DNA of 25,649 nt, taken from IMG/VR virus record IMGVR_UViG_3300042318_000011, positions 1 through 25,649 of that record. One strand, given 5' to 3'. Source of the DNA: a virus. Taxonomy: Duplodnaviria > Caudoviricetes. The stretch's first letter is position 1; each line of letters starts with the position of its first letter. A program made the position numbers and the translations under genes. Below are positions 4,429 to 25,649 of the stretch, piece after piece. The notes beneath the pieces were generated by a model. It worked only from the letters and a program-made list of their open reading frames with translations, made no database searches and was not told the DNA's origin.

Positions 4429-4437
4429 ATCATAGCC
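4429..4437 (-). promoter_or_regulatory. Candidate -10 element upstream of the adaptor gene
   Basis: GGC-TATGAT overlaps the GT2 stop codon and is followed by an AAGGAG RBS. Confidence 0.35.
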
Positions 4438-5467
4438 GATAATGAGACAGGTTTGTCTTAAGTCTTTCATCTGTTGGGTTTAACGCCACCGCTTCAGACC
4501 CGTGGAACCATGCTTCATCCATGTCTCCAAGGTGGTAGCAGGCAACAGCCATGAGGTCGTGTGGTAGCCAACCCCAAGCATCTGCTTCACAAAGATAATC
4601 CAATGGTTTCTCGGTGATTGCTAAAGCCATTGAGACTGTGTTTCTTACTGCGAGCCAGTTGCGTTTCTCGTGGTAATACATCGCTAGAGCAACCCATGAT
4701 TCACGGCGGGTTGGGTCTTCCGCTATGGCACGGTACAGGTGGTAGTCGGCTACAAGAGGCACCATCTTGGCTAGGTACCTGTGGGATGCGGCTCGTTCTG
4801 GGTTCCATGTGGATATGTCTAGGTGTCGTGCAAAATGATACTGACTTAAGGCATAGTCACCGTGGAAGAATAATTCACGGGCTAGGTAGAACTGGTTGCG
4901 GTCATCCCTTGGGTCTTCTTCTACAGCGAGTTTGAGTAGGGGCAGGTATTGACTGCGGGACTTTGAAGCGTCTGGGTGGTGGTGGATTTGTAGGCCGTCT
5001 ACCCAGTGTTGGGTTTCACCGTCGGTGGGTTTGAGGACTTCATGGACTGGGTGTTGCCATGTGTATCCGTGCCTGGCGTGGATTTTGTCGCCACCATAGA
5101 CAAGCCCTTCGGACCCGTCGGGGTTCCATGACCAGATGTATTTGTAGCGGGGTCGGGTCGTGCCTTCAGGGATGGCTTCTAGTGCTTCACGCCAGCCTGG
5201 TTGGAGTTGCTCATCCATGTCTAAAGCGATGCACAGGTCTATGTCTTGGGGGAGCATGGAGAGTGCCATGTTGCGGGCTGTGTCAAAACGCCACGGACTG
5301 ATAACACGAGTAACGGTGTGGATGCCGAGTTGGTGGGCGAGGGTTGTCGTTTGGTCTGTTGAGCCTGTGTCTAGGATGAGGCGATAGTCAGCATCGGTGC
5401 AGGAGTCTGCCCATTGCTGGACATGTTGTTCCTCGTTGAGAGCGATTGTGTATACAGCAATACGCAT
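4430..5467 (-). CDS. Glycosyltransferase family 2 (GT-A fold) with C-terminal TPR repeats
   Basis: MRIAVYTIALNEE, LDTGSTD, FDTARNMAL, DxD motif (LDMDE), W-x2-PVHEVL and helical TPR-like repeats. Start reassigned to ATG 5467, which has GAAGGGA upstream; the ORF track start was 5509. Confidence 0.9.
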   Translation of the reverse strand: MRIAVYTIALNEEQHVQQWADSCTDADYRLILDTGSTDQTTTLAHQLGIHTVTRVISPWRFDTARNMALSMLPQDIDLCIALDMDEQLQPGWREALEAIPEGTTRPRYKYIWSWNPDGSEGLVYGGDKIHARHGYTWQHPVHEVLKPTDGETQHWVDGLQIHHHPDASKSRSQYLPLLKLAVEEDPRDDRNQFYLARELFFHGDYALSQYHFARHLDISTWNPERAASHRYLAKMVPLVADYHLYRAIAEDPTRRESWVALAMYYHEKRNWLAVRNTVSMALAITEKPLDYLCEADAWGWLPHDLMAVACYHLGDMDEAWFHGSEAVALNPTDERLKTNLSHYRL

Positions 5468-5492
5468 ATTGGTTCCCTTCTGTTGGGGTCGT

Positions 5493-6041
5493 TTACGGCA
5501 AGCCAACAACAGTTAAAAAATGACTAGCGATACGAGCAGTACCAGAAGAAGTTTTAACTTTCAAAGTAAAAGTGTTATTGCCAGCAGTTAAACCAGTAAT
5601 TTTGTGTTGCATAGAACACATCCAAATATCGTTAGTGTTGGCACTGCTCCAACGCAAGCATTGACCAACTGATGTTGTGTACCCAGTGACATCCACATCA
5701 ACATTTATTTCACCAGTACCAGACTGTGTTTGAAGGTTGCCACCAAAAGTAACCAATGCTGTTGTTCCTGTGGCGATTGTGATGGGTGCCAAATATCCTT
5801 GGTTTCCTGCTGTGCCGATAGCAACATACGAGGTGCTTGTGAAATCCAGATAGGATGCAGTCCCTGATACAACAGCAAAGTTTGATTGTGGTGTTATGCA
5901 AACCCAAGCAGAACCGTTGTATACCAAAGAGTTATTGGTGTCAGTCTCGTAAATCATCTGACCTTCATACGGGGCGGTAGGGCGTGTTGATGATGTGCAC
6001 ACGCCAGGTCGTAACCCAGTTGAATTATTACTAATAGCCAT
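5493..6041 (-). CDS. Putative fibre/receptor-binding head protein (Mtd-N-like N-terminal motif)
   Basis: TRPTAPYEGQMIYETDTNNSLVYNGSAW followed by a beta-sandwich-like C-terminus (GLTAGNNTFTLKVK). Confidence 0.65.
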   Translation of the reverse strand: MAISNNSTGLRPGVCTSSTRPTAPYEGQMIYETDTNNSLVYNGSAWVCITPQSNFAVVSGTASYLDFTSTSYVAIGTAGNQGYLAPITIATGTTALVTFGGNLQTQSGTGEINVDVDVTGYTTSVGQCLRWSSANTNDIWMCSMQHKITGLTAGNNTFTLKVKTSSGTARIASHFLTVVGLP

Positions 6042-9188: not shown

Positions 9189-10271
9189 TTAAACAACATA
9201 TCCCGCATCCTTCAATACATCATGGACATTCTCAGAAACAACATAGATTTGCCCTGGTTGTAGACTGTAGGACTCGGTGCCGATGTCTGCTTTGACTTTG
9301 CGGTTCACTTGGATTTCAACAGTAACTTTGGGGGGTTCCCACTCTGGGTTGTCTAGCAGGGTGCCTTCAGGGATGAGTGACAATAGTTTGCGGGTGGCGT
9401 TAGACCATGAGAATGTTTTGGTTTCGGGGATGCGAGAAATAGCAACCTGCTTAATGGAGCCACGGTTGGTGTATGCCTCCATCATCAGTTCTTCCAGTAT
9501 CTTCTGGTTGGGTTCATCCCACTGCCCTGTTGTCTCCGCTTTGGATTTACCGCATGGAACTACCCCGAAGGCAAGATGAGCGAACTGGGCTTGTCCTGTG
9601 CTGTCTGACACGATTGTAGGGATACCGCTGGCAATAGCCTGCAACGGCATAAGTCCGAAACCTTCGCCACGAGCGGGAGCCACAAAACAATCTGCTTTGT
9701 TATACCAAGACCGTTGTTCTTCGGGGGTCATCCATGTTCTGTTGAGAAACACTTTGTCGCCAAGGTTGTGGCTGGGGACATCTTGTGCATGGGGGGCTGC
9801 TTTGATGTGTAGTTCAGCGTCGGGAAGGTTCAAAGCGTTGAAGGCTTTGACAAGGATGTCCATTCCTTTGCGTTTCCATAACGACCCGCCACCTTGGAAA
9901 CGAAACACCCCATCAGGTTTAGGCATTGGTTTCCAAAATTTATGGTCCACCCCCAATGGGCAGTAGGAAACATCGTTATGAAACTGACTGAACAGTTCTA
10001 CATTATGTTCGCAGGGAACAACCACCTGGTCAAACTGGCTTAACCAATTACAAAAATTATCAGGCAACTCATCGGTTTCCCACATAGAAAACAACACCCG
10101 ATGCTGACCCGTGAACCAACCCTTACACGCATACGGGACCTGCATGTGAACACTTACAGAAGCATGGTCATCCAATGTTACAGACTTAGGAAGCGAATCC
10201 TTAAAACCTTGAAGCATGGAACCATACCCCAACTTAGGGTCATTAAACCCCACCCATGATTGATAGTTCAC
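9189..10271 (-). CDS. Glycosyltransferase family 4 (GT-B fold) with an extra C-terminal small domain
   Basis: MWET, VVVPCEHN, PLGVD, RKGMDILVKAF and ADCFVAPARGEGFGLMPLQAIASGIPTIVS. GTG start in a GTGA overlap. Confidence 0.9.
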   Translation of the reverse strand: MNYQSWVGFNDPKLGYGSMLQGFKDSLPKSVTLDDHASVSVHMQVPYACKGWFTGQHRVLFSMWETDELPDNFCNWLSQFDQVVVPCEHNVELFSQFHNDVSYCPLGVDHKFWKPMPKPDGVFRFQGGGSLWKRKGMDILVKAFNALNLPDAELHIKAAPHAQDVPSHNLGDKVFLNRTWMTPEEQRSWYNKADCFVAPARGEGFGLMPLQAIASGIPTIVSDSTGQAQFAHLAFGVVPCGKSKAETTGQWDEPNQKILEELMMEAYTNRGSIKQVAISRIPETKTFSWSNATRKLLSLIPEGTLLDNPEWEPPKVTVEIQVNRKVKADIGTESYSLQPGQIYVVSENVHDVLKDAGYVV

Positions 10272-18800: not shown

Positions 18801-20549
18801 CTTCATTGAACCAGCAAGACGGCGAACTTGACGGTAGTCGGGTAAAATAAACATTTCATCTGCTAGTTCACCTAAAGAACCTGGACCTTGGAATACCAAA
18901 TTGTCCCATTGGTCAGGACGGAACTGCCCAAGAATTTCATCGGGGATATCTGCCCGCATTGCTTGGAATGCACCACCGTCAGTAACAATGCCTGCTTCAT
19001 CAATAGTGTATGTGCGAACTCTTGTTAGTTCTTCTCGTGATGCTTCAATGACTCTTGCAAGGACAGTGTTAGCATCTTCTGTTCTACCGAACTCTTTAAA
19101 GACGGTAGTGAAAGCACCATTGAACGCTTCTTGTACTGCGTCACGGGCTACAGCAGGGTCGGTCAGACTGTAAGCCCTAACGATTTCGTCCATAACTGTC
19201 GTGTATTTTTCGCTACCTTTTTTAATTCCAGCACCAATTAGATAGTTGGAATATGTACGGACTGCTTTGGTTCGGTCCATCCCTGAACCGCCAATGATTA
19301 CACTGCCTGCTGGCATTTCTGTAAACCATTTACTGTTGCGAATGTTGCGGAACAAAGGGATGCGTTCTGTTGTGTCATCTAAAGCCGTGCCAAATTTTCC
19401 TTTAGCCATGCTGAAGTCACGGATATCAGTGGTTAGTCTGACCTCGTTAGGGTCTTTACCTAGGCGTGCCGAGGCTTCACCAAGTAATCCTTTAACTTTA
19501 TCTATGTCGTCTGCTTCGGCAAAGTTCTTTGCTATCTCAGGACTAATAGTGTCTTTGAATTCTTCAAGGATGTCTAAAGTTTTTTGTTCAATACTTTTAG
19601 TTGTGTCTGCACCTACAGCAGCAAGTCTTTCTGTGAGGCGTACTGCTCGTGGGTCTTGAGTAATGAACTGACCAAATTTAGAAGCATCAAACGCTGCGGT
19701 TTCTGCTGCTGTCAAACCAGCCGCACCTTTGTAAGCCATCTTTGTTGCAGCAGACATTGCTTCTTCGCCCACAAGTGCGGGGATGATAGCGCCTTTTGCT
19801 TTTGCTGTTTTAAGGGCTGGACCTAAATATGTTGTTGGGTCTGTAGCGATGTTAAATGCTGCGTCAACAAACCCTGATAGTAAACTGTATGGTTTAGAAC
19901 CTGGTTTAAATGCCATCTGTGCAGCACCACGACCTACTGTCCATGCGTGACCATTTATTTCTCCACGAAATTCACGGGCTTTTTGAGCCTGGTTTTTTAA
20001 TGCTTCTTGACCAATAAGGAAACCTTCACCCACATCAATTGGTTTTTTAGTAATGGTTCCGTCGGCGTTCTTTACATCCATTGTTGCACCTTGTTGTGCA
20101 GCAAGCATTGTCCCTAATTGTGTGGACCTGAAGAACCCATCCATACCAGCAGGGTCGTTAGGTGAGAACGCTTCTGCAGCAAGGTTCTGTGCCATGTCTG
20201 GTACAGCCTGCAACGCAGCAAATGACCATCGTGAAACTGTTTTAAAGTTGTCTGTCACATTGGATTGAAACCAAGATTTGTTTTTCTTTTTATTAGGGTC
20301 ATTTGATTCAAGAGATTGTTTTGCAGCAGCGGGAGATATGGCATTAACAGCGTCGTCTGATATGCCTTGTTTAGCCATAGCAAGAATAATGTTTGCTGGT
20401 ATATACGGAGACTTTTTATATATCTCTGCAATGCGTTTAGCAACTACAGGGTCAGCAGATTTAGCGGTGCTTGATACTTGGTCCCTGTTATATACTGCGT
20501 TTGCTATTGATTGGTTTTCGTTAACTGGGTCAAAAGGCGACAAAGCCAT
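15873..20549 (-). CDS. Large putative internal virion/DNA ejection protein
   Basis: 1558 aa, mostly helical and Ala-rich, without tape-measure periodicity. Size and context fit a podovirus core protein. No catalytic motif recognised. Confidence 0.55.
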   Translation of the reverse strand: MALSPFDPVNENQSIANAVYNRDQVSSTAKSADPVVAKRIAEIYKKSPYIPANIILAMAKQGISDDAVNAISPAAAKQSLESNDPNKKKNKSWFQSNVTDNFKTVSRWSFAALQAVPDMAQNLAAEAFSPNDPAGMDGFFRSTQLGTMLAAQQGATMDVKNADGTITKKPIDVGEGFLIGQEALKNQAQKAREFRGEINGHAWTVGRGAAQMAFKPGSKPYSLLSGFVDAAFNIATDPTTYLGPALKTAKAKGAIIPALVGEEAMSAATKMAYKGAAGLTAAETAAFDASKFGQFITQDPRAVRLTERLAAVGADTTKSIEQKTLDILEEFKDTISPEIAKNFAEADDIDKVKGLLGEASARLGKDPNEVRLTTDIRDFSMAKGKFGTALDDTTERIPLFRNIRNSKWFTEMPAGSVIIGGSGMDRTKAVRTYSNYLIGAGIKKGSEKYTTVMDEIVRAYSLTDPAVARDAVQEAFNGAFTTVFKEFGRTEDANTVLARVIEASREELTRVRTYTIDEAGIVTDGGAFQAMRADIPDEILGQFRPDQWDNLVFQGPGSLGELADEMFILPDYRQVRRLAGSMKFATTNKAGDQRGLLTLAEFVQNEVWKPLTLATGGYLMRNLADSQVRIAMTGLDGIFNHPIDYIRWSIKRGKGFADVMGDDFTASADELAGAWAKEQPEYVDAMTYGINQHYKDTVAAQERNLLTGNWSPVNRTTDAKAHTTGYVDNLRLLNFDPINGQIAKFMAAGDTEAEALTKVADWLKSPAATPQRKKLIEYLKQGVKVVDPSSPNDYGYIRFPGEISDETLSEWVHKLSSTKVNTIARGDNELTIIAAHNRVPVTIADMDGTFTAVRPEILDTRDLRPRDFVSGEGDIGSIIKLDNGNEGVVLSKTGTELKVQEVHPGSAFAESGLGSSYLRTLIDQKGLEGKLAETVKRAERGISEGPSSAGQKAMDVKNHFTDKIFKDLFGTITQKLERSPVFRQFYYREVANSAELLAPEEAQKLLNRIDDMVEELGIKAENYVGDKKTLKKLKEIAASSSDATGTLEELDNYAKAVALRSSKEALFDATTRNNLQDVLRIVVPFGTAWTEVLGSYARIAVEDPTRIRRAQLIFEGGRKADMGIVGGQEGQGFFYQDATTGKYSFNFPGSGSLMKLATGIDAPLQAKVTGLSLGFNFNPGVGPVFQDLASRIIPDTPKTDWIVSILLPYGRTKGVQLMPRILTQLDQIVRSDTMNLETVYGNTYMETLRVLSSSGEYDLNDESEKNKLMADAKSKARIITALRALGQFIGPTSPSAEFGVETKAGDFYATQLIKEFQKLQSENYDTAVKRFLEIHGNDALLYLSNKTESVSGGLEASEQFGDWERTDGKDIMEAFPDVAGFMAEGGDDFSFEVWSRQLRQGKRKRLTDREMIDAAQYKAGSAQYRELRKQLPANPSSQQSAWLRSWRIELNKEYPGFPVVAQFNPGEFPDKIDKLNKMLESPSLKDNDIADSTRTYLERRKDAVDQYVLAGGAEGGFATANAAAPLREWLAQWGRSLVNETPEFARIYDRLLSYEVEQ

Positions 20550-22831: not shown

Positions 22832-24805
22832 TTACTTAAGCCAGGATGGTCGCCATTGGCGGGGTGGTGGTTTGGATTCTGTGAGGTTCGGCAAGTTGAG
22901 TAGTGCCATCCATAGTGCCATAACAATGTCGGTGCCGTGTTTCTTGTCTCGTGACCATTTAGTTAACTCGTCTGTGGCTGCAAGGGTCTTCCAGTTGCCC
23001 TTCATAGACGGTAGGCGTAGTGCGCCTGACCTGATAACTGCTGGCAGTAGTGCTTCCACACCTAGGGATTCGTCTAGTTTGTTTCGGCTTGTGGTGTGTG
23101 GTATCACATTGACTCGGTGTAGGGCTTGCCATTTGCGTACAAAGTCGTGAGCCAGAAGGAAACGCTGGGCTGCGTTAATCTCTACAACCCAATGCGAGAT
23201 TGGGTAGCCCATTTGGTATGAGCGTTCCTGCATCCTGTCCATCAGCCCTGAGTATTCACCAGTCATGGTGTCATAACCAAGCACTTCTTCAGCGGATAGT
23301 TTGACTCGTTCAATGTCTACAACATGGTAAAGGTTCGTGTTCGGCTGGTAAATAATCCACACAAACGCCCAAAACATTGTAGGTGAGGGGTCTACAGCGA
23401 CGATAGATACCCACGGGTGGGCTAAACCTTCAGGGATATACCCTGGTTGGCGGTCACCATCTACACATCCTGGGTAGTCCACCCCATCTAGCCCCATGCC
23501 ACCAGTAATCCATGTGCGTTGTACCAGTTTAGAATCCAAGTCCAAGTCTTCTTGTTGATATACAACTTTGAATACATCTGGTTTGTTGTATTTAATGAAA
23601 GATAGGTCTTTCCACGGTAGACGCTTGGGGTCTAGTAGCGGTCCGTCTGGATACGGTAAAGATTTGAAAGAACGAGATTCTTTACCCGTGTCAAGTTCTT
23701 CATAATACGCTTGATAGACAATATGCCTGTACTTTTTTTGCCGTACTGGTACACCTTCAGATACATCTTCAGGGGTATGGACATCTGACCCATCGTAATT
23801 GATATCTTCTTCAATGTCGTATGTTTCTTTGGCGAGACAATGAGCGTAAAGGTCCCCCGAACCGAGTCTCTGCCCGACAACAGCCAACAACCCGCCTGGG
23901 TCGCAACGGGCTTCTGCCACTCCGTCCCATCTTTCCAAAAGTTTGTCCCTAGCCACGCTTTCTCTCGCATTGTCAGGTGAGGCAACATCGTCAAAGAGGC
24001 ATAGGTCGGCTCGGTGCCCAATGAACTCTGCTTCAATTCCGTATGCACGGACAGTTGGCTCTTTGTTGTCCAAACCATTTCCGTCAAGTTGCTCCACGAC
24101 GAACTCATCGGCACGCCAAAGCGCACCTTTGTCCACTGGTTTGAATCTTCCGTAGTCAATTGTTAAACATCCTTCTGCATCTATTGCTAATCCCTTTTGA
24201 ACCATGCCTGGGTCTGGGAGAATTGGTGATACTCGTTCTAGAGTTTCACGGATACGACGGGAATACATCTTCGCCATGTTCTGAGACACAGACCCAATCA
24301 TGACTCGTACCCGTCGGTTGCGTACTATCGCCCACACAGCCACATCATGAAACAAGGTGGACTTACCTGCTCCTGGTGGGACATTAATTACTACAAATTC
24401 TTTTTCTTCGGACTCCAACAGTTTTACAAGAGTCACAGCGGCTTCAACCTGCCACGGACTTGGCACTCGCCCTAGATAACGGCGACGGAAGTAATCAAAA
24501 TCTTCCAACCCTCGTAAGGCTTCCTCGGAAAGCATGTCATGAGGGATAGCGGATGGCATATCAATGGCATCCATGAAGTTCATGTGTTGCAGTTCTTGGC
24601 GACCACCAGACCCAGCACCAGTAGCGGCTTTATGAACAGCAGACTTATGCCCTGCTTCTAGTTCTTTAGCCTTCTTAACCCATCTACTACCTGTGTTGTA
24701 GTGGATACCCGCCTCAGCGCAAGCGTCTTTAATGTTTCGTCCAGCGGAAATGAGAGCAAAGAACTTAACTTTGTCTTGTACTGGAACAATTCGTTTTGTT
24801 CCCAT
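22832..24805 (-). CDS. terL: Terminase large subunit with an N-terminal HTH
   Basis: SPWQ adenine-binding motif, Walker A VPPGAGKST, Walker B LCLFDD, VVGQR, nuclease VAVDP, WVVEINAAQ and TDIVMALW. Confidence 0.93.
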   Translation of the reverse strand: MGTKRIVPVQDKVKFFALISAGRNIKDACAEAGIHYNTGSRWVKKAKELEAGHKSAVHKAATGAGSGGRQELQHMNFMDAIDMPSAIPHDMLSEEALRGLEDFDYFRRRYLGRVPSPWQVEAAVTLVKLLESEEKEFVVINVPPGAGKSTLFHDVAVWAIVRNRRVRVMIGSVSQNMAKMYSRRIRETLERVSPILPDPGMVQKGLAIDAEGCLTIDYGRFKPVDKGALWRADEFVVEQLDGNGLDNKEPTVRAYGIEAEFIGHRADLCLFDDVASPDNARESVARDKLLERWDGVAEARCDPGGLLAVVGQRLGSGDLYAHCLAKETYDIEEDINYDGSDVHTPEDVSEGVPVRQKKYRHIVYQAYYEELDTGKESRSFKSLPYPDGPLLDPKRLPWKDLSFIKYNKPDVFKVVYQQEDLDLDSKLVQRTWITGGMGLDGVDYPGCVDGDRQPGYIPEGLAHPWVSIVAVDPSPTMFWAFVWIIYQPNTNLYHVVDIERVKLSAEEVLGYDTMTGEYSGLMDRMQERSYQMGYPISHWVVEINAAQRFLLAHDFVRKWQALHRVNVIPHTTSRNKLDESLGVEALLPAVIRSGALRLPSMKGNWKTLAATDELTKWSRDKKHGTDIVMALWMALLNLPNLTESKPPPRQWRPSWLK

Positions 24806-24814
24806 GTAGGTTTT

Positions 24815-24823
24815 ATTCTACCA
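24815..24823 (-). promoter_or_regulatory. Extended -10 promoter candidate (near-leaderless) for the terminase
   Basis: TGG-TAGAAT lies 9 nt before ATG 24805, with no SD. Confidence 0.5.
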
Positions 24824-25084
24824 CTTAACTTTGTCAGCCCAATACGCAGCAGACATTTTTCCTTTAGCAATGTTAGAAGCATGACGGTCTTTGAACGCTT
24901 TGTTGCGTGCAGACCCGTCAGGGGAACCTGACACACCTTGTTGTCCGAAGCGGATTAGTTTCACTTCGCTACCGACTTTGGCTACAACAACATGAGATTT
25001 AGTTGGATGCTTAGGAGTTGCTTTAGGTTTATTAAACCCAGACACCCCAGCCCGTTCCAGTCGTGGGTCCTTCTTTGCTGCCAT
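24818..25084 (-). CDS. Small basic phage protein
   Basis: 88 aa with KLIRFGQQG ... FKDRH ... SAAYWADKVKW, a motif pattern I recall from uncultured aquatic phages. Confidence 0.8.
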   Translation of the reverse strand: MAAKKDPRLERAGVSGFNKPKATPKHPTKSHVVVAKVGSEVKLIRFGQQGVSGSPDGSARNKAFKDRHASNIAKGKMSAAYWADKVKW

Positions 25085-25200
25085 TACTTTTTCTTTTTAG
25101 GAGCCATCACCATTTTTTTGCCAGACTTTTTAGCCGCTGCTTTAGCGTCTTTCATTCCAGCGTCTGTGTATGGGAACTTCTTTTTTCCTACCTGTGGCAT
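25084..25200 (-). CDS. 38-aa Lys-rich peptide (absent from the ORF track)
   Basis: MPQVGKKKFPYTDAGMKDAKAAAKKSGKKMVMAPKKKK. AAGGA upstream. It fills the gap exactly and has a TAATG overlap with the next gene. Confidence 0.8.
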   Translation of the reverse strand: MPQVGKKKFPYTDAGMKDAKAAAKKSGKKMVMAPKKKK

Positions 25201-25201
25201 G

Positions 25202-25366
25202 TTACTTTCCTTTTTTGTTTCGGGATGCAGCCATGTTATCAACAAGATTCGGGTACGGACGACCCGCCTTCTTAGCCCGTGCTTTCGCTGCTGTCTTTTG
25301 AGCAGGAGAGAGAGGAGTAGATTTCTTTTTAGGGTTTGGTTTTTCCCAAACAGGTTTTGATTTCAT
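25202..25366 (-). CDS. 54-aa Lys-rich protein
   Basis: MKSKPVWEKPNPKKKSTPLSPAQKTAAKARAKKAGRPYPNLVDNMAASRNKKGK. Start reassigned to ATG 25366, 7 nt after an extended -10. Confidence 0.75.
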   Translation of the reverse strand: MKSKPVWEKPNPKKKSTPLSPAQKTAAKARAKKAGRPYPNLVDNMAASRNKKGK

Positions 25367-25373
25367 GTTGGAA

Positions 25374-25382
25374 ACAATAACA
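25374..25382 (-). promoter_or_regulatory. Extended -10 leaderless promoter candidate opening the late operon
   Basis: TGT-TATTGT followed by 7 nt and then ATG. Confidence 0.55.
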
Positions 25383-25387
25383 CCACC

Positions 25388-25396
25388 TGCTATGCT
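25388..25396 (+). promoter_or_regulatory. Divergent extended -10 promoter candidate
   Basis: TGC-TATGCT, back-to-back with the minus-strand promoter and just upstream of the structured region. Confidence 0.5.
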
Positions 25397-25402
25397 TCGT
25401 CG

Positions 25403-25649
25403 CACAAGTTCATTTCTCGCATGGCTGTATACCGTTTGCATGGTACGGGGCATTTCACACCAGGTAACTGGGGTAGATGAATCCTGCAATCAAGAACATC
25501 TGAAACAGATGGTTGTTCCCCTATTGTGTAAGAGATTCAAGCAGCGTGAACAACGACATATGTTCAACCTTTCAGGTGTCGGCTAAAAGAATTTGGCTAC
25601 GGCGACCTTGGTATCAGTTTGGTATCTAAACCGTGGGGGAGGCTAAGAC
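25403..25649 (+). ncRNA. Candidate structured non-coding RNA (runs off the window end)
   Basis: Consecutive helices including CCAG-GUAA-CUGG, a long nested hairpin at 25478-25539 and a possible pseudoknot at 25547-25581. No convincing ORF. Confidence 0.55.

Follow-up and report, generated by a model that had tools for sequence, protein, structure and literature searches.

ColE1 RNA II is about 550 nt long and carries a G-rich stretch near its 3′ end. The preprimer RNAs of ColE1 and of the MRB plasmids are unrelated to each other, as far as the available text of the source describes them (PMC6380287), and serve as a precedent here. Among phages, Fremin et al. 2023 presented candidate viral RNAs from the same source database as the DNA treated in this study; in the available part of that paper, 14 of them lie upstream of terminase genes (PMC10690425). 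The window analysed here is the complete record IMGVR_UViG_3300042318_000011 with its 25,649 nt. A stretch of about 240 letters on its + strand (25402..25642) is, with hardly any doubt on our side, a real structured non-coding RNA (ncRNA) gene; as delimited by conservation edges and by the covariance model (CM), it is a type I long form that extends from a 5′ single-stranded leader to a 3′ G-run. The original prediction, a structured phage ncRNA that is read from the + strand and diverges from the late operon, is supported by covariation, by a promoter pattern, by its orientation and by the lack of an Rfam match, and the letters and helices that it named stand at the positions given, apart from the exceptions discussed below.

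The phage late operon is located on the - strand of the window and encodes the terminase large subunit, portal, major head protein and tail fibres; the ncRNA stretch lies upstream of it on the opposite strand. The terminase large subunit with an N-terminal HTH is encoded at 22832..24805 (-) and was assigned by PHROG 38, a weak match to PHROG 4102 and a weak HTH match. Three small basic-protein genes head the operon (24818..25366, -; PHROG 7595 and 34011) and are patchy among relatives. These tiny Lys/Arg-rich genes, the first of which is probably leaderless, are common in RNA runs from lakes. The ORF matching PHROG 34011 begins at the ATG at 25366, and a putative -10 box of the divergent operon is found 7 nt before this ATG (25374..25379, -). 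Judged from this sequence, the late-operon mRNA is likely leaderless and the promoters of the late operon and the ncRNA likely stand back-to-back. Two glycosyltransferase genes are located amid the tail genes (4430-5509 and 9189-10271, -). High contig depth was seen in three RNA runs for L005:6265-6525, corresponding to about window 20130-20390 within a 1558-aa ORF; some unrelated, abundant RNA that matches briefly at this place may be the cause.

It is the homologues, not the fold of the single sequence, that raise the case for an ncRNA far above chance. The proposed folding check was unremarkable: compared with shuffles, the ncRNA stretch gave a z-score of -0.46 on the + strand and +0.09 on the - strand, i.e. 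no stability above chance, and single-sequence folding was rejected as a test of this ncRNA, being non-significant for the stretch. For 25 of 75 aligned members, the mean folding z was -1.07 on the + and -0.14 on the - strand. Eighty IMG/VR loci were selected for the similarity of their terminase; 62 of these match the ncRNA stretch, and wherever the upstream flank measured 2.1 kb or more, the stretch was present (40 of 40 loci). When motifs were scanned for without regard to the terminase, the viral collection was estimated to hold ~300 and ~430 such stretches and metagenomes ~450, where 77 of 80 tested loci gave a CM match; altogether, 245 distinct type I/II sequences were collected. Relatives show sharp similarity edges at ~25419 and ~25646, with varying flanks and terminase distance, and covariance model R1 matches 25413-25646 in the window. 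Conservation stops at the G-run (~25640), so that the window holds essentially the whole core. The idea of a fragment of a much larger RNA was not upheld, the conserved core measuring ~240 nt and short members only ~140-180 nt.

Structural analysis was based on alignment A1, which contains 75 type I sequences (80 representatives minus 5 that were misparsed or type II) with a mean identity of 0.65. In A1, 94.2% of cells are paired, compared with 75.5% in shuffles and 33-46% in slid controls. The demanded search for covariation in homologues was positive: 34 of 55 proposed pairs had changed on both sides, and the covariation score was reached by none of 500 shuffles. We also applied a G-test of our own making, which takes the tree into account, uses 60 null alignments and differs from R-scape. 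It identified 17 column pairs at E<0.05 in the 75 type I sequences, of which 13 are in register within P1b, P2, P3 and P7, one extends P7 and three are non-base-pairs.

The first helix, P1 (25424..25451, +), is composed of P1a (25424-26/25449-51), a purine-rich internal loop which is a possible GNRA receptor, P1b (25430-33/25442-45) and loop L1. P1b, predicted as UACC/GGUA, is paired in 100% of A1 with double changes in 4 of 4 pairs. Loop L1 contains the 5′ strand of a pseudoknot (UUGC, 25436..25439, +), whose 3′ strand GCAG is located at 25541..25544 (+); its four pairs are formed in 75 of 75 sequences, with UA exchanged for CG in five and CG for AU or UA in two. These A1 column counts are used as support for the type I pseudoknot in place of automatic loop picking, which is crude for type I and, applied family-wide as a partial method, gave 19 of 34 fully paired with shuffles reaching up to 17. 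In type II the partner is located inside P3 and the equivalent pairing covaries: in 21 sequences, and with crude loop picking, a loop and its own partner form 5.1 Watson-Crick pairs compared with 3.7 for swapped partners (0 of 10,000 permutations).

Hairpin P2 (25457..25474, +) is capped by a GNRA tetraloop. Its CCAG-GNRA-CUGG core was predicted correctly; the two inner pairs covary (E<0.02; both sides changed in 38 and 43 of 75) and the loop is constantly GNRA. P3 (25478-83/25534-39 within 25478..25539, +), established by covariation, encloses an optional P4 arm (25485-25528) which is missing in short members. The predicted UGAAUC/GAUUCA helix of P3 is 97% paired with double changes in 6 of 6 pairs; inside it, UGCAAU/AUUGUG is 97.5% paired where present and GAAC/GUUC 80%, whereas CAUCUG/CAGAUG turned out to be a variable peripheral stem lost from short members. 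P5 (25547..25566, +) is an optional hairpin with a conserved AACG loop and is lost in type III. P6 (25575..25607, +) is a near-invariant bulged hairpin, an invariance that partly reflects how the search patterns were built; the sequence of its stem varies freely in types III and IV. The predicted GGCUAAA/UUUGGCU in this region agrees with the alignment but hardly varies. The bulged G25604 pairs with C25631, a base that lies after P7, and this lone tertiary pair is GC in 62, CG in 11 and other in 2 of 75 sequences. P7 (25610..25626, +) is a variable hairpin with four pairs at E<0.02, in which the predicted GGUA/UAUC is 92% paired with double changes in 4 of 4 pairs. The proposed helix UACGG/CCGUG enclosing it had to be rejected for lack of covariation: it shows no double change, 13 of 75 sequences cannot form its last pair and it competes with GUCG/CGGC. 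On the other hand, P1a, the pseudoknot 25436-25439/25541-25544, P5, P6 and the lone pair 25604:25631 were absent from the earlier fold. Its choice of the + strand was correct, as shown by the G-U pairs and by the loop that is always GNRA.

A conserved protein-coding signal, named beforehand as a sign against an ncRNA, is absent. The P2-P6 spacing splits 26/23/26 over the three frames and only 9 of 75 members possess an open frame on the + strand; ORF 25365-25586 gave no PHROG match. Coding is excluded by this frame-random spacing and by the stops, and a small protein gene was dismissed, as there is no conserved reading frame.

At 25388..25396 (+) we found an extended -10 promoter box of the ncRNA (TGN-TAnnnT), a pattern conserved in members: it occurs 14-95 nt upstream of L1 in 85 of 110 members, compared with 29 of 110 on the reverse strand and 1 of 79 further upstream. 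A sigma-70 promoter scan found none, because the promoter is of the extended -10 type. Position 25388, taken before as the start of the element, therefore belongs to the promoter, and the RNA would start at about 25402-25420. We infer both transcript start and end, the former at ~25402-25404. In many members (e.g. L013, L052, L064) an optional 5′ hairpin, always with a GGGA cap, is present upstream of P1, which accounts for three promoter-to-P1 distances; the copy in the window is without it. The 3′ G-run of 5-7 G (25633..25642, +) has a length of 5, 6 and 7 in 34, 54 and 10 of 98 members, respectively. It is rarely followed by a U-tract terminator, a U4 tract within 60 nt being found in only 6 of 93 members.

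Expression of the ncRNA is weakly hinted at by RNA runs. Eight of 15 runs were compared, and in 3 of these 8, short contigs lying wholly inside the RNA with nothing downstream were detected (218 nt, corresponding to window 25418-25636; 183 nt; 196 of 236 nt), contigs which carry neither strand nor transcript ends. Among the remaining runs, X3, X4, X7 and X10 had no coverage of the ncRNA and X6 covers the whole region. With the unremarkable single-sequence z, the weak expression, the four of eight runs without coverage and the one covering everything, one could argue that the stretch is no RNA and is instead an artefact, a small ORF or a site conserved as DNA. This we regard as very improbable in view of the double-sided changes in 34 of 55 pairs, the G-U pairs and GNRA loop on one strand only, the covariation of the pseudoknot, and the frame-random P2-P6 spacing with just 9 of 75 members open on the + strand.

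The ncRNA of the window belongs to a wider family of four RNA types of 140 to 250 nt with one common core, and this ncRNA is common to several unrelated lake phages. Type II is found by the type I model at E-values from 1e-7 to 1e-22. Type III is shorter and retains P1, the pseudoknot, P2 and P3; its 3′ module is simpler and consists of GG, a helix, a GGC-containing loop, a helix and the G-run. We collected 43 distinct flank-bearing type III copies. In some genomes type III is a second copy: on one side it faces the exonuclease/SSAP operon head-to-head, and on the other it converges with a lysis-type gene that ends ~20-30 nt past the G-run; G001, G003 and G004 have a single copy only. Carriers are 40-kb podo-like phages, 14-16-kb phages with an HNH-terminase fusion, and larger phages in which the RNA lies by replication-initiation genes. 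The 14-16-kb phages form a large group in which HNH is fused to the terminase large subunit (L346 in G008, L339, L573-L652); no separate small terminase subunit was seen in it. Their RNA variants, connected to types I and III by model R2, are located directly upstream of the fusion gene in 23 of 23 flank-bearing loci, co-directional and at a distance of 95-150 nt (80 loci were fetched, the others being without flank or identical to the query).

This co-directional placement, together with the position upstream of replication genes in large phages, is what a cis-acting leader, riboswitch or put-like antiterminator of the downstream operon would predict. A structured leader had also been considered in the original prediction. 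However, the window's clade has neither a conserved downstream ORF nor a conserved distance, and the second copies, which are of type III, converge on their neighbour and meet the lysis-type gene head-on at its end, so that such a role seems distinctly improbable. The riboswitch or 5′ leader class was likewise discarded for want of a fixed position upstream of a consistent gene.

Placement beside the packaging genes, as originally described, applies to the window's clade and not to the family as a whole. Within that clade the ncRNA has the likely genome end on one side and, on the other, a terminase without a separate small subunit; in the mini-phages it lies directly upstream of the HNH-terminase fusion. 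A packaging RNA, be it similar to the phi29 pRNA or a terminase recruiter replacing the small subunit, would suit these sites; it might assemble into a ring by loop-loop pairing in trans, given that the loop pairing and GNRA contacts could also form between molecules. We nevertheless consider this function unlikely. One and the same RNA type occurs alongside four unrelated terminases, some carriers having a separate small subunit. Type II arises by two changes on a 39-row terminase tree, both times beside type I carriers with 94-95% identical terminases (94.7% for L023); in G023 the portal gene is ~58 kb off on the contig, and type III copies are distant from the packaging genes. With subtypes swapped in this way among near-identical terminases, a phage protein that co-evolves with the RNA becomes less plausible, and a host partner, the template DNA or intrinsic chemistry more so; the same core in company with unrelated terminases makes a host component or the DNA itself the likely partner.

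Hosts are likely Actinobacteria, as indicated by WhiB genes in G004 and G007; a weak CM match in L699 was set aside as chance, since it lies inside a WhiB-like ORF. Neither model matched any of 151 sampled Actinomycetota genomes, from which the true host group may be missing. A pattern search in bacterial genomes resulted in 12 matches, of which 11 are chance (GC-rich coding DNA without a CM match). The one real match, with two copies in a Crocinitomicaceae MAG, was discarded as probably derived from misbinned phage contigs; in this MAG (G012: L324, L350, L351) the contigs are short and one copy lies beside ORFs of terminase and portal size.

A host partner could mean that the ncRNA is a free, trans-acting molecule which binds a conserved host factor and takes over the cell right after injection. 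The factor could be an RNA polymerase cofactor or a C-rich host sRNA, the ribosome, contacted through the SD-like G-run, or else a protein or signal that belongs to defence. The RNA has its own promoter and no linked ORF, its second copies are independent of position, its subtypes swap freely, it adjoins the genome end at which entry or reading probably begins, and it appears as stand-alone contigs in 3 of 8 RNA runs, all of which such a free RNA would explain. Accessory anti-host genes are usually patchy, however, unlike the retention observed here (40/40 and 23/23); moreover, no antisense match above shuffles was found within the own genome in five carriers, and no chromosomal homologue in the 151 Actinomycetota genomes sampled. 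We therefore take a host-factor RNA to be possible but rather doubtful.

The universal retention in 40 of 40 and 23 of 23 loci speaks for a role of the RNA in a core step. Our tentative preference, held with clearly less than even confidence, is that the ncRNA is a transcript of the host polymerase that primes or opens a replication origin in a manner analogous to ColE1 RNA II. Host RNA polymerase would transcribe the ncRNA from its own predicted promoter; with the 5′ domain folded, the 3′ G-run would stay accessible and could hold the RNA on the DNA in a persistent hybrid, presumably an R-loop; from this hybrid, host enzymes, presumably RNase H and Pol I together with the primosome of the host, would start phage DNA replication. 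In five complete carrier genomes, DnaB_C, Prim-Pol and Toprim_2 were each found in 0 of 5, and the early ORFs scanned include SSB, SSAP, YqaJ exonuclease and RusA and no polymerase or initiator; unrecognised initiators could be present among the many unannotated ORFs of the carriers. Streptomyces phage WRightOn, with a similar layout and a 27% identical terminase, has an annotated primase and DnaB and no match to either RNA model, an outgroup contrast made up of one phage. The stand-alone RNA contigs are no less compatible with a free RNA than with a primer.

In two large-phage lineages with 43% protein identity, the RNA is found directly upstream of a gene for the C-terminal half of an O-like protein and a weakly G39P-like gene. 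These genes (L349:10772-11185 and L354:1182-1553) encode stand-alone proteins of 120-137 aa that match only the C-terminal half of the O-like initiator, and the weakly G39P-like gene comes after them. Among loci with O-like genes, the ncRNA was present in only 2 of 80 (one phage) plus L354; the link is therefore not obligatory. At 45 of 70 other O-like loci this position is occupied by a different noncoding element of large phages, which is preceded by a promoter and ends in a double C-run (e.g. L656, L662, L673, L678, L701, L722 and L728), possibly a separate origin or ncRNA family. Counting against an origin, no origin-like sequence was seen behind the type III copy. The GC skew of five genomes has its extremes near the RNA in some and elsewhere in others. 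In 44 of 61 members, as against 13 and 7 of 59 in the controls, a conserved DNA motif (CCTCGGCANACCCCCAGT-like) follows 130-430 nt after the G-run; it is more likely a packaging end than an origin, because a near match lies within the 264-bp terminal repeat of WRightOn. At L005:870-620 (minus), past the window end, this motif has AC-rich DNA before and GT-rich DNA after it. A second small conserved hairpin element with the core GCTNCGC (L005:985-940, minus) was detected in 61 of 195 type I/II copies, mostly 25-70 nt after the G-run; it can be read as GNA-triloop DNA hairpins on the terminase strand and is absent from the 43 type III copies.

Well-supported new structured RNA classes of such size are rare, and retention by every examined member of two abundant unrelated phage groups, even with genomes of 14-16 kb, argues for a core job. 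Priming, if true, would explain DNA copying in lake phages lacking primase and helicase, and could provide a short Rep-free origin for Actinobacteria; packaging, if true, would extend pRNA-like biology beyond phi29. On a broader level, and with a chance we put not far below even, the family would be an exchangeable phage origin-RNA class that replaces primase, helicase and initiator in unrelated actinobacterial phages by a compact pseudoknotted RNA providing its own primer, the first RNA-primed module across tailed-phage lineages, or else an RNA scaffold for several terminase families. The natural size series of 140 to 250 nt, with four types and one core, makes structure and function amenable in vitro.

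Rfam 15, which covers riboswitches, ribozymes, tmRNA, RNase P, SRP, 6S/Ms1, GOLLD, raiA and pRNA, had no match at gathering in the window and three chance matches at E 4-8 within 24800-25649; in 20 other member loci there was none at E<=1, and 10 more gave three weak matches off the RNA. With respect to Rfam the expected novelty thus stands, and the statement that the element is no tRNA, tmRNA or known ribozyme agrees with the Rfam result and with ARAGORN, which found 0 tRNA/tmRNA genes in the window. Resemblances to SAM-I, THF, ZTP, SRP, RNase P, twister and hatchet motifs had no Rfam support. The compact knotted fold and its invariant residues could suggest a self-cleaving or self-processing ribozyme with a core of P6, the lone tertiary pair and the G-run, the more so as no promoter box is evident by eye in mini-phages, where release from a longer transcript may be needed. 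Yet the P6 stem is free to change in types III and IV, which leaves few family-wide invariant residues, and no Rfam ribozyme matched at E up to 1-10; we judge a ribozyme quite improbable. Group II intron domain V has an invariant AGC/CGC triad. This candidate was rejected, as the P6 stem varies across types III and IV and no intron RT was seen in the ORFs scanned.

The cultured-phage collection contained no real match for three RNA types, and no description of the ncRNA was found in the literature searched. The models of Fremin et al. 2023 (PMC10690425) differ in being, in the available part of that source, fragments of 29-151 nt, among which a piece of the ncRNA may be listed anonymously; a motif scan of four of its files gave no match. 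The Evo-PIN database of a 2026 preprint could, by its available description, hold an anonymous fragment as well. As a full family, the ncRNA is quite probably undescribed.

Several known systems can be compared. The C4/CI antisense RNAs of P1 and P4 are likewise structured phage regulatory RNAs with exposed loops, but for the ncRNA no complementary target above shuffle level exists in five carrier genomes. GOLLD, ROOL, OLE and raiA share with it, in the available texts, a pseudoknotted structure, environmental origin and modular optional domains (PMC12286853, PMC12990946); the ncRNA is smaller, has no tRNA neighbours in the window and does not match their Rfam models. Similar to the phi29 prohead RNA, as described in the available parts of the sources (PMC4201828, PMC5066667), it is phage-encoded and structured, shows loop pairing and has its gene near a genome end. 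The loop pairing is seen by covariation, which would fit cis and trans alike. In contrast to phi29, the carriers possess terminase-type motors of several families and a portal, and no phi29 ATPase; the ncRNA shows neither co-variation with the terminase nor an Rfam match to pRNA. With ColE1 RNA II, the ncRNA has in common a G-rich stretch near the 3′ end; it is unrelated in sequence and fold and has 140-240 nt compared with ~550 nt. An equivalent of the antisense RNA I was not found, the window giving no RNAI-type match in Rfam. Like ColE1 RNA II and the MRB preprimers, as far as the available text describes them (PMC6380287), it would be a promoter-driven folded RNA of a replicon without detectable initiator or primase: neither was detected among the annotated ORFs of five carriers, and the own promoter pattern is present in 85 of 110 members. 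This likeness to ColE1 is meant as an analogy in the way of working and not as homology. The RNA class appears to be undescribed; its job is likely of a known kind.
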